From Pseudomonadota bacterium (GTDB taxonomy: Bacteria > Pseudomonadota > Gammaproteobacteria > Burkholderiales > Burkholderiaceae_C): 64,000 nucleotides of DNA. Under the pieces are notes generated by a model. It saw nothing but the letters and a program-made list of their open reading frames with translations, was not told the DNA's origin and ran no database searches. The stretch spans positions 3,152 through 67,151 of the forward strand of contig JAZKIR010000020.1 in NCBI GenBank assembly GCA_040384785.1, read 5' to 3'. Of this stretch, positions 6,097 through 43,488 are shown in pieces; positions within the stretch are counted from its first letter, which is position 1, and each line of letters begins with the position of its first letter. A program made the position numbers and the translations under genes.

Positions 6097-7014
6097 TCAA
6101 GGGCTTGCGCGAAACCGCCATTCCACCTGCAGTGCCACGCTTTCACCCGCATGCAACACACGCAGGCCCGGCTGGCCCGGCGCATGGAATGCGTCAATGG
6201 GGTGGGTCACCGGTTCAAAGCAGAAGGCGGGTCCGACGGGCGGGCGGTACAACAAACAATAACCGTCGTGCTGGCCTGCGTCATGGGTAACCGGCACGCG
6301 CATCTCCAGTTGCAACTGGTGTTCGGGCCAATCAATGCGGCCCAGTCCGGACCAGCCGGTGAAGGCGTTGTCGACCAGCGTGCCGTTCACGTCCAGCCCA
6401 CCGTTCAGATCCCAGGTGGCGGGCAAGTCGGTCGTGTGGATGGTCGGCAAGGGGTCTGCACCGCTGAGCCAGACCCCTTGCACGGCCGCTTGCAATCTCG
6501 TTTGCGGCGTGCGCAGAAACCAGGGGTGCAGCCCCAGGCCATAGGGCAGGGGAGACTCGCCCAGGTGCGTCACGCTGACGGACTGGTTGAGCCCACCGTC
6601 GACCAGTTGGAAGGTCTGCGTGGCGCGGTAGTCATACGGGTTGCCGTCAAAGTGATGGGACTCCAGCGCCATGACCAGCGTGTCCTGGTCGGGCTGGCTC
6701 AAGGTCCAGGGCTGCAGCCAACCGTCGCCATGGATGGGGTAGGGCTCACCGACGCGGTTCGGCGCCATGGCATGGAATTGCCCACCCTGTTCAAAACCGC
6801 CACCACTGATGCGGTTGGACCAGGGCAGCATCGCAAACGAGGCCAGCGAATAGCGGTCGGGGTTGTGGCCGTCCCAGGGGCGCCACAGGTCCAGCACATC
6901 ACCGTGTGCGCGCTCCAGTTGCCAGGCGGCGACACCGCCGCCCAACGTGGGTACCAGGCCCAGGCGTTGGCCAGCGTGGTGGAGCCAGACGATGGAGTGT
7001 TGCGGCAAAGTCAT
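6097..7014 (-). CDS. Aldose 1-epimerase (mutarotase) family protein
   Basis: PWSNRI, IHGDGW, GLHPWF, DNAF and CFEP motifs; start set at ATG 7014. Confidence 0.9.
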   Translation of the reverse strand: MTLPQHSIVWLHHAGQRLGLVPTLGGGVAAWQLERAHGDVLDLWRPWDGHNPDRYSLASFAMLPWSNRISGGGFEQGGQFHAMAPNRVGEPYPIHGDGWLQPWTLSQPDQDTLVMALESHHFDGNPYDYRATQTFQLVDGGLNQSVSVTHLGESPLPYGLGLHPWFLRTPQTRLQAAVQGVWLSGADPLPTIHTTDLPATWDLNGGLDVNGTLVDNAFTGWSGLGRIDWPEHQLQLEMRVPVTHDAGQHDGYCLLYRPPVGPAFCFEPVTHPIDAFHAPGQPGLRVLHAGESVALQVEWRFRASP

Positions 7015-7056
7015 GGGAAAGGGTCCTAAAAAACAAAGGGTAAAGCTAGCGTGGGC

Positions 7057-7199
7057 TATTGATCTTTCCACAATTCACGACAGAGACATTGTCCGTTCGC
7101 CCTGAGCCTGTCGAAGGGCTTAAGGCTTCGACAAGGCCCGTCCTGAGCCCGTCGAAGGGCTCAGCCCGAACGGTGTCGTGCAATACGGAACGCTCAATA
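7057..7199. repeat. Palindromic REP/MITE-like element, copy 1 (TATTGA...TCAATA ends)
   Basis: Core CCGTTCGCCCTGAGCCTGTCGAAGGG...GCTCAGCCCGAACGG recurs seven times in the window. Confidence 0.85.
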
Positions 7200-8136: not shown

Positions 8137-8254
8137 TATTGATCTTTCTGCAATTCGCGAAAAATACGCTTCCGTTCGCCCTGAGCCTGTCGAAGGGCCT
8201 AAAGGCTTCGACAAGCTCAGCCCGAACGGTGTATTGAAATACGGAACTCTCAAT
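8137..8254. repeat. Palindromic REP/MITE-like element, copy 2
   Basis: Same TATTGATCTTTC...GGAACTCTCAAT ends and core as copy 1. Confidence 0.85.
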
Positions 8255-10904: not shown

Positions 10905-10944
10905 TAGGCCTAGCTGTAGGCCATGTGCGCGTACTTAACAAATC

Positions 10945-11030
10945 CCCGTTCGGGCTGAGCCCTTCGACGGGCTCAGGACGGGCCTTGTCGAAGCCGTCGT
11001 GAGCCCTTCGACAAGCTCAGGGCGAACGGG
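10945..11030. repeat. Palindromic REP/MITE-like element, copy 3
   Basis: CCGTTCGGGCTGAGC...GCTCAGGGCGAACGG core between convergent genes; TTAA on both outer flanks. Confidence 0.85.
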
Positions 11031-11089
11031 GGTTAGGCGAACCGCAATCGTTAACTGGCCGCTCACGCCCCGTCGGGATTAATCCTTAT

Positions 11090-13350: not shown

Positions 13351-13493
13351 GGCAACGCTGAACAAGTACCACCGTTCGGGCTGAGCTAGTCGAAGCCCTC
13401 TGCAAGTCTTTGATTTGTATGGGCTGCGTTTCGACCCTTCGTCAAGCTCAGGACGGGCCAGGCTCAACGCGAACGGACTTAGTCAGCGAAGCC
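13351..13493. mobile_element. 143-bp MITE, copy 4 (GGCAACGCTGA...TCAGCGAAGCC terminal inverted repeats)
   Basis: 11-bp imperfect TIRs flanked by TGAA/TTAA; same length and nearly the same sequence as 41030-41172. Confidence 0.75.
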
Positions 13494-14804: not shown

Positions 14805-14819
14805 GTTTTTAGGTATTGA

Positions 14820-14974
14820 GGCTTTGCTGATTATTGAGAGTTCCGTATTTCAAGACACCGTTCGGGCTGAGCTTGGCCTGCCATGAGCCTGTCGAATGGT
14901 CGAAGCCTTTGAGCCCTTCGACAGGCTCAGGGCGAACGGAAAGGATTTCGTCGTGAAATTCGGAGGAATCAATA
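14820..14974. repeat. Palindromic REP/MITE-like element, copy 5
   Basis: Left end GGCTTTGCTGATTATTGAGAGTTCC, shared core, right end GGAATCAATA. Confidence 0.8.
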
Positions 14975-34745: not shown

Positions 34746-34794
34746 GGTTTGCTGTTGGCTCAAGAAAAACAAGCCGCAGAGCGGCTTGCTTTAA

Positions 34795-34914
34795 GGCTCT
34801 GCTGATTATTGAGAGTTCCATATTTCATGACACCGTTCGGGCTGAGCCCTTCGACGGGCTCAGGACGGGCCTTGTCGAAGCCTTTGAGCCCTTCGACAGG
34901 CTCAGGGCGAACGG
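34795..34914. repeat. Palindromic REP/MITE-like element, copy 6
   Basis: TTAA then GGCTCTGCTGATTATTGAGAGTTCC; core nearly identical to copies 3 and 5. Confidence 0.85.
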
Positions 34915-34975
34915 AGGTTTATTGTTACCTTAACCAATAGGCGCCTCGGGCTTACGGGCCCAAGTCGCTACCGGG

Positions 34976-40265: not shown

Positions 40266-41192
40266 TCACAGGCTGTGGGTCTGCGGTTTGCCTTCGGGTT
40301 GTTTGCCAGCGATGATCATGCCGAGCACTTCGTCTTCGGTGACATCACTGGTGCGGTAGGTACCCACCAATTTTCCATTTTTCATCACCGCCAGTCGGTC
40401 ACTCAGGCCAAACACGTCAGGCATGTCGTGGGTGATCAGGAAAATGCCCACACCCTCGGCCTTGAGCTGGCGCACCAGGTTGCCGACCATGGCGGTTTCC
40501 TCCGGGCCCAGCGCGGCGGTGGGCTCGTCCATGATCAGAATCTTGGCGTTGAAATAAATCGCCCGCGAGATCGCCACCACCTGGCGTTGCCCACCCGAGA
40601 GGCGGCGCACCGGCGTGCGCACGTTCTTGAAATTTTTATTCAGCCGGGTGAACACCTTGCGGGCTGCGGCGTCCATGCGGCGGTCGTCCAGCGTATGCCA
40701 GCGCGTCAGTAGTTCGCGGCCTAGAAACAGGTTGGCCACGGCATCCAGGTTGTCGGCCAGCGCCAGCGTCTGGTAGATGGACTCGATGCCGCAGTGCTGC
40801 GCATCCACCGGGCTGCGGATGTGCGCCTTCTGGCCGCTGATGATGACCTCGCCGCTGTCAATCGGATAGGCCCCGGCCAGCATTTTCATCAGCGTTGATT
40901 TGCCCGCGCCGTTGTGCCCCAGCAAGGCCACGACCTCACCGGCATACAGGTTCAAGCTGACATCGTCCACGGCTTGTACGCCGCCAAAGGCCTTACCGAT
41001 ATGGTGCAGCTCCACCAACGACGGCTTAGGGCAATGCTGAACAAGTACCTCCGTTCGGGCTGAGCTTGGCCTGTCCTGAGCTTGGCGAAGGGTCGAAGCC
41101 TTCTGCAAGTCTTTGATTTGTAAGGGCTGCGTTTCGACAGGCTCAACGCGAACGGACTTAATCAGCAAAGCCTTAGTGTTCGCGGCGCTCAT
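40266..41192 (-). CDS. xylG: Xylose ABC ATP-binding protein (single domain) with an in-frame 49-codon MITE insert
   Basis: [16 protein letters not shown] and MDEPT motifs; ATG 41192 overlaps the xylH stop (ATGA). Confidence 0.8.
41030..41172. mobile_element. 143-bp MITE, copy 7, with TTAG target-site duplication
   Basis: TTAG at 41026-41029 and 41173-41176 flanks TIRs GGCAATGCTGA/TCAGCAAAGCC. Confidence 0.85.
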
Positions 41193-42379
41193 GCTGTATC
41201 TCCCGTCATGCGGCGGTAAATCACATCGAACACCACGGCAACGATCAGCACCTGGCCAATGATCACGTAGCGCATGCCAATCGTCACGTCCAGGAGCAGC
41301 ATGCCGCTGTCGATCGACTGCATGATCAGCGCCCCCAGCACCGAGCCCGAGATGGAGCCGCTGCCCCCGGCCAGCGCCGTGCCACCAATCACCGCTGCGG
41401 CAATCACATACAGCTCCATGCTGGCGCCCAGCGAGTTGGTGCCCGCGTTCAATCGGGCAATCGACACGATGGCGGCAATGGTGATCAGCACCCCCATCAG
41501 GGCAAACAGCATCAGCGTGACGCGGCGCACCGGAATGCCCACCAACGCGGCTGCCTCGGGGTTGCCGCCCATGGCAAACACGTAACGGCCAAAACGCGTG
41601 CGGTGCACGAGGAAGGACAACACCAGCGCCACACCCGCCCAGATCAGCACCGGCACCGGAATGCCCTGGGGCGCGTCTTTGCCGGGAATCTGGTAGCGGT
41701 TCATGGCCGCCACAAAGGCCAGCACAATACACACCGGCACCAGCACCATGGCGGCATCCAGCCACAGCGGGTTGTTGGGCAGGTCATAGGCGGCGTTGGC
41801 ACGCCGCCGCGACCAGGTCTGGGCCACCAGGGCCAGCACCATCAGCCCGACCAGCAGCCAGCTGGCGGTGACCCCAATGGCCCCGTCGTAGCCGCCGCCC
41901 AGGCGTTGAAAAAATGCGTCATTGACCGGCTGCGTTTTGCCGTCGGCCACCAAAAAGGCCGCGCCGCGAAACGACATCAGGCCGCCCAGCGTGACCACAA
42001 ACGAAGGCACACCCAGCATGGCGGTCAGCGCCCCCTGGTAGAGCGACACGGCAATGGCCACGGCCAGCCCGGCCAGCGCGGCGGGCACCCAGTGCCAGCC
42101 TGCGGTGTACATCAGGGTGGCAATCAGAACCCCGACAAAACCCATGACGGAGCCCACCGACAAGTCAATGTGCCGCGCCACGATGACCAGCACCACAATG
42201 GTCGCCACCACCCCGACCACGGCCGTTTGCTGGGCGATGTTGTAGAGGTTCTCGGCCGACAAAAACAACCCGCCCGAGAGCACGTTGAACACCAGGGCTA
42301 TCACGGCCAGCACCGTGCCCATCATCACCAGCCGCCAATCGATGGCGGCCTGTCTCAGCACATTCAAAACGGGATTCAC
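41189..42379 (-). CDS. xylH: Xylose ABC permease
   Basis: [16 protein letters not shown] and MGGNPEAA motifs; GTG 42379 follows a GGAG RBS. Confidence 0.85.
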
Positions 42380-42398
42380 AAGCTGTCTCCGCAAGGCA

Positions 42399-42432
42399 TT
42401 AAAAAACCGCGAACTGTTGCCAGCCCGCGGTT
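42399..42432 (-). terminator. Attenuator-like hairpin after xylF
   Basis: On the minus strand AACCGCG...CGCGGTT runs into a T tract, between the xylF stop and the xylH RBS. Confidence 0.45.
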
Positions 42433-42465
42433 CGTGGGCTCGGCTCACTCAGTAGAAAAGGTGCT

Positions 42466-43488
42466 TCACTTGCAGGCGGCAGGGCCTTTGGCGGCGTCCA
42501 CACCCTTGCACAGGTCTTCCTTTTTGATCCAGCCGGCCGTGACCACCTGGTCCAGGTTTTTGGCGGTGACCGGCACGGGTTTCAGAAACTGGGCCTGCAG
42601 TGCGACCTTCTTCTCACCGCCGTCCCAGGTCTGGGCCCCGGCTACCTTTTGGCCCTTGGCCAGGGCCACTGCAGCCGCAGCGGCATCGCGGCCCAGGTCA
42701 CGTGCGTCTTTCCACACCGACACGGTTTGCGTGCCCAGTGCCACACGGTTCAGCGCGGCGTGGTCGCCGTCCTGGCCCGACACCGGAAGTCCCTTGATGC
42801 CCTTGGCGCTGAGTGCGGCCACGACACCACCGGCCGTGCCGTCGTTGGACGCCACCACGGCGTCTACCTTGCCACCGGTCTTGGTCAGAATTTGCTCCAT
42901 GTTTTTCTGTGCCACTTCAGGCTTCCAGCCGTCGGTGTATTCCTCTCCCACGATTTTGATGTCGCCTTTTTTCACCGCGGCATCAATGATTTCCTGCTGG
43001 CCTTCACGCAGAAAGTTGGCATTCGGGTCGGTGGGGGAGCCCTTGATCATCACGTAGTTGCCCTTGGGTTTGGCGGCAAACACGGCACGCGCCTGCATGC
43101 GACCGACTTCCTTGTTGTCAAAGGTGATGTAGAACACGCCGGGCGCCTCGATCAGGCGGTCATAGGCCACCACCGGAATCTTTTGCTGGTTGGCCTTGTT
43201 CACGGCGGGCAGGATGGCATCCTTGTCCATGGCCAGAATGATCAGCGCCTTGGCCCCTTTGGCGATCAGGCTGTCTATGTCGGCCAACTGCTTCTCGGGG
43301 GAACCACCGGCATCGGCACTGATGTAACTGGCACCGGCCTTGGCCAATTGCGCCTTGATGGCGGCTTCGTCGGTCTTCCAGCGCTCTTCCTGGAAGTTGG
43401 ACCAGCTCACACCCACGACTTGGGCGAACGCGCCGGCGGCAGCCATGCCCAGTGCAAAAGCAGTCAATGTTGTCTTCAGTTTCATCAA
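42466..43488 (-). CDS. xylF: D-xylose ABC substrate-binding protein
   Basis: [29 protein letters not shown] and SGQDGD motifs. Confidence 0.9.

Follow-up and report, generated by a model that had tools for sequence, protein, structure and literature searches.

A 143-bp MITE lies in frame within the first codons of a xylG-like ABC ATPase gene in the window (the whole stretch of 64,000 nt analysed here), and the account that we regard as probable is that the element entered xylG at codons 6-7 through mobilisation of the IS5 type, is read through to give a 308-aa ATPase and adds to this protein a tolerated N-terminal tail. The coordinates are collected in Table 1. On the gene strand, the gene begins ATG AGC GCC GCG AAC ACT AAG, continues with 147 nt and resumes with CCG TCG TTG GTG GAG CTG, the element being placed between codons 7 and 8. 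As a preliminary description of this DNA had stated, the 143-bp element and the 4-bp TTAG duplication add up to 147 bp, or 49 codons with no stop. Its coordinates and arithmetic are correct, the 49-residue peptide that it gave is identical to the gene-frame translation of the 147 nt, and removal of the insert does give, on the sequence, the N-terminus that it had described as restored. Within the 147 nt only the gene frame is free of stops, the other five frames having one to three each. Since one in six insertions would be open by chance, the open frame alone is weak evidence.

Table 1. Features of the xylose operon, the inserted element and its second copy, in window positions
Feature	Position	Strand	Remarks
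xylG-like single-domain ABC ATPase ORF, insert included	40266..41192	-	308 aa; ATPase domain from about residue 58
xylH permease gene	41189..42448	-	directly upstream of, and translationally coupled to, xylG
xylF	42466-43488	-	412 bits against a TIGR02634 cut-off of 389.55
ROK regulator, FGGY kinase and xylose-isomerase-like gene (XylA2_C protein)			downstream of xylG
MITE, 143 bp	41030..41172	-	119-bp common family form plus 24-nt internal module; long hairpin
TTAG target-site duplication (CTAA on gene strand), start-codon-distal copy	41026..41029	.	
TTAG target-site duplication, start-codon-proximal copy	41173..41176	.	overlaps codons 6-7 (ACT AAG)
Terminal inverted repeat GGCAATGCTGAACAAGT	41030..41046	.	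resembles IS5 inverted repeat GGAAGGTGCGAACAAGTCC
Terminal inverted repeat ACTTAATCAGCAAAGCC	41156..41172	.	reverse complement of GGCTTTGCTGATTAAGT
Second 143-bp copy of the same MITE	13351..13493	.	intergenic; 0 of 6 frames open
Ancestral xylG ATG (predicted)	41190..41192	-	overlaps xylH TGA (41189-41191) as ATGA
Shine-Dalgarno-like GGGAGA	41199..41204	-	6-7 nt upstream of ATG
In-frame TTG (41016-41018) and GTG (41013-41015) just past element	41013..41018	-	only candidate downstream starts

The classification of the insert as a MITE, already made in the preliminary description, is borne out by its inverted repeats, by the 4-bp duplication, by the many copies of its family and by a relative in which the site is precisely empty. 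At the termini, the inverted repeats measure 17 nt each; the inner arms pair as well, with a complementarity of 70% over 27 nt and of 84% over 19 nt. The RNA fold of the element reaches -56.1 kcal/mol (z = -3.1), a value equalled by 0 of 200 shuffles, and for the 43-nt element end zero chance matches are expected in the window. Scans of positions 40800-41400 for sigma-70 promoters and intrinsic terminators returned none, so the element has no obvious promoter or terminator, and a search of 40900-41300 against Rfam gave no family at E <= 1. Both 143-bp copies in the window consist of the 119-bp form and the same 24-nt module, GCCYGTCCTGAGCTTGNCGAAGGG, which sits on opposite hairpin arms, inverted, in the two copies; each looks as if it had kept one half of a longer palindrome.

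Both states of the site were recovered from metagenomes. In a contig of a rhizosphere run (X4), 41024 is followed directly by 41172; exactly 147 nt are missing, which takes out the element and one copy of TTAG. The empty site that the preliminary description had proposed to seek by aligning orthologues is seen in this contig, and the orthologue N-termini lack the insert as well. Whereas the same description had allowed for all orthologues being extended, the 120 best of 8000 protein hits all lack the extension. The orthologues measure 253-292 aa; the closest ones start with MSAANITQSLVEL, MSAGNAKQALVEM and MSAGNTKQALVEM, and those starting with MSAANITQSLVEL or MSAGNTKQALVEM have 253-265 aa. 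The filled allele was found in one metagenome only, a watershed run (X1; Logan contigs, SRR26324625), in which one contig extends from xylG into the element by 29 nt, to 41054, and a second one leads from 41147, a position 26 nt inside the element, to xylH. The two junction contigs match at 100% identity, with depths of 21 and 18, and the empty allele was not seen in this run, where no contig joins the flanks directly. Inside the element, the depth rises to as much as 1163 versus about 20 in the flanks, because of the many element copies in the X1 community. Neither the filled junction nor the exact empty site turned up in a scan of JGI metagenome contigs, and an exact look-up of the 308-aa product in a gene-call collection gave no record, the only matching assembly being a Logan contig that breaks off within the element. 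When the 49-aa insert peptide was compared with 5.8 billion proteins, a single 76-aa hypothetical protein was retrieved (67% identity) and no other at that sensitivity. Given the filled junctions in X1, the 147-nt empty site in X4 and the N-termini of the orthologues, we conclude that the insertion is real and lacking in close relatives.

The genomic context of the interrupted gene, examined for xylF, xylH, xylA and xylB, is that of a xylose operon: xylF scores above its model cut-off, a permease gene lies upstream and the ROK, FGGY and XylA2_C genes lie downstream. The ATPase itself reaches only 186 bits against the cut-off of 724 for the full-length tandem XylG model (TIGR02633/PRK13549, about 500 aa) and aligns with positions 1-238 of the 500 in the XylG profiles. 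Thus, where the preliminary description spoke of the xylose ABC ATPase gene, the xyl operon context stands, but the product is a single-domain relative and not the 500-aa tandem XylG. Without the insert, this single-domain form has 259 aa. It has one nucleotide-binding domain (window 40266-41024), unlike the 500-aa tandem XylG of E. coli, and the short form is conserved across Comamonadaceae orthologues. In the 308-aa protein, matches begin at residue 76 for Pfam ABC_tran and at about residue 58 for the NCBIfam models. The best protein matches of the ATPase come from Comamonadaceae (Rhodoferax, Hydrogenophaga, Acidovorax and Curvibacter), in keeping with the betaproteobacterial host suggested before. 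Compared with L001, the closest relative, xylG shows 18 synonymous codon differences and one non-synonymous one, a count that points to purifying selection on the gene, with the reservation that the insertion may postdate the divergence used for the count.

N-terminal homology and the conserved overlap with xylH mark ATG 41192 as the ancestral start. Orthologues begin with, for example, MSAANITQ or MSAGNTKQ, to which codons 1-7 (MSAANTK) are homologous. The overlap of this ATG with the xylH stop as ATGA, reported earlier, is indeed observed, and a stop-start overlap between xylH and xylG is called in seven of nine loci (the window, L001, L120, L121, L123 as GTGA, L124 and L125); in L004, an overlapping upstream ATGA is present and is not called as the start, and L122 is the sole locus with a gap. 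The MSAANTK homology and the overlap in these seven loci agree with the earlier placement of the element in frame inside the ancestral coding sequence. The Shine-Dalgarno sequence is conserved in L001, L004 and L124. Within 20 nt upstream of TTG 41018 and GTG 41015 there is no Shine-Dalgarno sequence, whereas ATG 41192 has a suitably spaced GGGAG, and the ribosome-binding region of the two downstream codons overlaps the 3' arm of the hairpin. A start downstream of the element, which the preliminary description had named as the outcome that would speak against it, is therefore not indicated by the sequence, TTG and GTG being without a Shine-Dalgarno sequence. As there is no in-frame stop, a ribosome starting at ATG 41192 must enter XylG. 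From the sequence we infer that ribosomes read through the element and that the 49 residues are translated, and the transporter would have retained its function. The hairpin of -56 kcal/mol begins about 20 nt after ATG 41192 and could lower the translation of xylG. RNA runs were screened for the strain of the window, and the best word share was 0.08, i.e., other organisms.

The N-terminal tail of these ATPases is naturally variable in length and composition, which is why an insertion there would be tolerated. Among 59 aligned orthologues, the segment before LVE(L/M) ranges from 3 to about 44 residues, and the remainder is nearly invariant. AlphaFold2, run on the alignment of the 59 orthologues, gave a mean pLDDT of 74 and a pTM of 0.72, with residues 1-53 below a pLDDT of 50 and a confident ATPase fold from residue 58. 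Given that the insert has no alignment depth, a low pLDDT is expected for it and is no proof of disorder. The 49 residues of the insert probably form a floppy tail, and in the model the ATPase fold is unaffected by them.

The element belongs to a family that is widespread in Betaproteobacteria. A scan for the terminal inverted repeat pattern over betaproteobacterial genomes, with one genome per species, returned more than 112 stretches, and the hosts among the matches listed are Polaromonas, Rhodoferax, Nitrotoga, Gallionella, Ferrigenium, Sulfuritalea and Rhodocyclaceae. Copies from Polaromonas and from Rhodoferax MAGs are 88-92% identical to the element over 76-90 nt. From the scanned loci and the window, 30 complete copies with both flanks were taken, for which the commonest length is 119 bp. 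YTAR is found at the left flank of 25 of these copies and at the right flank of 23, where about 1 in 64 is expected by chance, and the 4-bp flanks are identical in 16/30. Fourteen copies have two YTAR flanks of which not both are palindromic; among these, seven pairs are direct and one is inverted, so the flanks represent a target-site duplication and not an extension of the inverted repeats. Only one of 32 complete copies, the one in xylG, lies in a long ORF, and zero to two of the six frames are open per copy, at about chance level; the family has no bias towards genes. We also considered whether the length might be tuned to codons and rejected this: length plus 4 is divisible by 3 in 20 of the 30 copies, but this is driven by one 119-bp subfamily and is thus no independent evidence of adaptation. 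A full-text literature search with the terminal repeat sequence returned unrelated primers only, and this IS5-like MITE family of freshwater and soil Betaproteobacteria is apparently undescribed. In a plasmid collection, only a 52-nt core match was found, on a Variovorax replicon and without annotation. The window holds five further intergenic palindromic repeats (7091-7173, 8150-8229, 10934-11033, 14819-14940 and 34792-34918), in which the MITE core CCGTTCG...TGAGC...TCGAA is combined with other outer sequences; two of them, at 14.8 kb and 34.8 kb, both open with GGCTYTGCTGATTA, and TTAG or TTAA occurs near their ends. These five may be sister MITE families.

The target site and the ends of the element, which are what the assignment rests on, make it most likely a derivative of the IS5 group. 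IS5 duplicates 4 bp of a YTAR target (PMC5009759), and the MITE resembles it in this 4-bp YTAR duplication (PMC5009759), in the inverted-repeat core GAACAAGTCC and in the leading GG. The end of E. coli IS5A, GGAAGGTGCGAACAAGTCC, shares with the ends of the MITE family the leading GG and GAACAAGTCC, the common pattern being GG...TGC.GAACAAGTCC, which is a short match and no more than suggestive. IS5 differs in being 1195 bp long with a transposase, whereas the MITE has 143 bp and no gene. Since the choice of YTAR is that of the IS5 group and the ends resemble those of IS5, mobilisation by an IS5-family transposase is presumed. The 117 fetched loci and the window contain no autonomous IS with these ends, taken as a transposase between two terminal inverted repeats at a distance of 0.7-2.5 kb. 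At one of these loci (L116), a 119-bp MITE copy (6577-6695) abuts a truncated DDE_Tnp_1_6 (IS5/IS1182-type) fragment (6750-7174), a stop-free ORF spans both, and no matching far end was seen; this arrangement could reflect the insertion of a MITE into a dead IS or be a remnant of the parent element.

The proposed sequence of events is the following. The 143-bp MITE, presumably mobilised in trans by an IS5-family transposase, would have entered a CTAA site across codons 6-7 of xylG and duplicated its 4 bp. It would have landed in the sole orientation and phase, one of six, that is free of stops, which is why xylG stays open, 143 + 4 making 147 bp or 49 codons. Ribosomes ending xylH at ATGA would most likely restart at ATG 41192, helped by GGGAG, and their read-through would produce a 308-aa ATPase with its first 56 or so residues as a disordered tail and its nucleotide-binding domain unchanged.

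In relatives, the same xylH/xylG junction carries another repeat, BRE, at 137-226 of L004, 181-270 of L005, 1501-1590 of L120, 401-520 of L121 and 401-510 of L123, in plus orientation in L004/L005 and L123 and in minus orientation in L120 and L121. The insert of L004/L005 comprises 90 nt including a 12-nt duplication of ATGAGCGCCGCG, which in L004 includes the ATG, and an 18-nt BRE remnant is present in L001-L003 (L001 75-100). In every one of these inserts and remnants, the frame is open from the coupled start, and such repeated preservation of the frame is expected if ribosomes start at the coupled codon. Aligned with the published BRE, the inserts score 67 (L004), 78 (L120) and 90 (L123). 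The window element was considered as a BRE as well and rejected, its score of 26 being within the range of shuffled sequences (mean 19, maximum 31). As to the assemblies themselves, L001, L002 and L003 are three independent metagenome assemblies of the closest relative that share their first base, which lies 62 nt upstream of xylG, and the contigs of L004 and L005 end within the 3' part of xylH. A decidedly improbable extension of these findings is that the first codons of xylG are a selected landing pad, used by at least two unrelated palindromic families with the frame always preserved; if this were true, the hairpin RNA or the encoded tail would tune either ATPase activity or the proportion of XylH to XylG.

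The same data can be read in other ways. It is conceivable, though unlikely, that the insertion is effectively intergenic, with XylG starting at TTG 41018 or GTG 41015 (250 or 249 aa) and the 56 upstream codons outside the working protein. The two in-frame codons do lie 2-3 codons past the element, the ATPase domain needs nothing before LVEL, the XylG of Hydrogenophaga begins MSAPLVEM, and the JGI gene caller picked a downstream ATG in the BRE-bearing L004. However, with no Shine-Dalgarno sequence in reach and their ribosome-binding region in the hairpin, TTG and GTG compare poorly with ATG 41192, which retains both a Shine-Dalgarno sequence and the stop-start coupling and from which the stop-free frame forces read-through. 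In addition, an open frame would then have been only a one-in-six event, and yet the BRE inserts of the relatives are all in frame. We consider it quite unlikely that the insertion is of recent date and harmful, whether mildly or strongly, i.e., a transient allele on its way to loss or pseudogenisation in which the hairpin or the tail cuts the output or function of XylG and the open frame is a matter of luck. Restriction of the filled allele to X1, its absence from the JGI metagenome contigs, the strong hairpin and a family that shows no preference for genes (one of 32 complete copies in a long ORF) would all fit such a history, but the filled allele is the sole one in X1 and has the depth of its flanks (21 and 18), the ORF is intact and near-identical to those of relatives, with the 18 synonymous versus one non-synonymous differences, and the tail that was hit accommodates anything from 3 to about 44 residues and, in relatives, other repeats.

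That the repeat was wrongly threaded into xylG during assembly is scarcely credible. Short-read assemblies do break within repeats, as the X1 contigs do 26-29 nt inside the element, whose interior is common to many copies (depth up to 1163 versus about 20). Against this, both unique junctions are present in X1 at 100% identity and flank-like depth, no contig joins the flanks directly, and a real transposition leaves just such traces as the duplicated TTAG and, in X4, an empty site that lacks exactly 147 nt. The reading that we prefer, insertion into xylG with read-through, is set against known systems below.

The insertion of repeats in frame has been known since RPE (2000) and BRE (2011), and no concept is changed by the present case. 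The added value is small and consists in the same N-terminal tail being recurrently occupied, with preservation of the frame, by two unrelated repeat families. It is a clean natural case of a mobile element that would add a peptide to a protein of essential fold without breaking it, and for this one insertion both states of the site (the empty one being precise), the duplication and the donor family are on record. The case is also of use for annotation, as starts of this kind are called differently by different gene callers and are places where metagenome assemblies break.

The parallel with Rickettsia palindromic elements drawn in the preliminary description is apt as an analogy, but membership of that family does not follow. 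According to the summary in PMC10969869, nearly half of the RPE copies lie in ORFs (Ogata et al. 2000), and RPE are palindromic repeats of about 100-150 bp that stand in frame in a housekeeping or metabolic gene and add a peptide while the fold is kept, which is the likeness. The differences are an unrelated host, a presumably unrelated sequence and the share of copies in ORFs, nearly half for RPE versus 1/32 here for long ORFs. The host being Comamonadaceae-like, the relation is one of analogy only. Unlike RPE, the window element has clear terminal inverted repeats and a YTAR duplication, which mark it as a derivative of a classical cut-or-copy transposon. BRE is a small repeat of Comamonadaceae and Bordetella that sometimes lies wholly inside coding sequences (Hot et al. 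2011; PMC3110155); it has about 90 bp and 69% G+C, occurs in tandem at some loci and varies in copy number between strains in a VNTR-like manner (PMC3110155). The likeness is its position, in frame at the same xylH/xylG junction in L004, L120, L121 and L123, and the difference is one of sequence, the window element scoring 26 versus 67-90 for the inserts of the relatives. In-frame repeats are found elsewhere as intragenic ERIC (Delihas 2007), pneumococcal BOX and RUP and Anabaena MITEs (reviews: PMC3184786 and PMC10969869), and the Coxiella repeats QMITE1/2 are small repeats fused in frame to genes (PMC5896051). Like the window element, ERIC, QMITE, BOX, RUP and the Anabaena MITEs are small and non-autonomous, and they lengthen or interrupt ORFs in frame, be it at the 5' or 3' end or in the interior; they belong to other families and hosts, whereas the insertion described here separates codon 7 from codon 8 in a gene with translational coupling.
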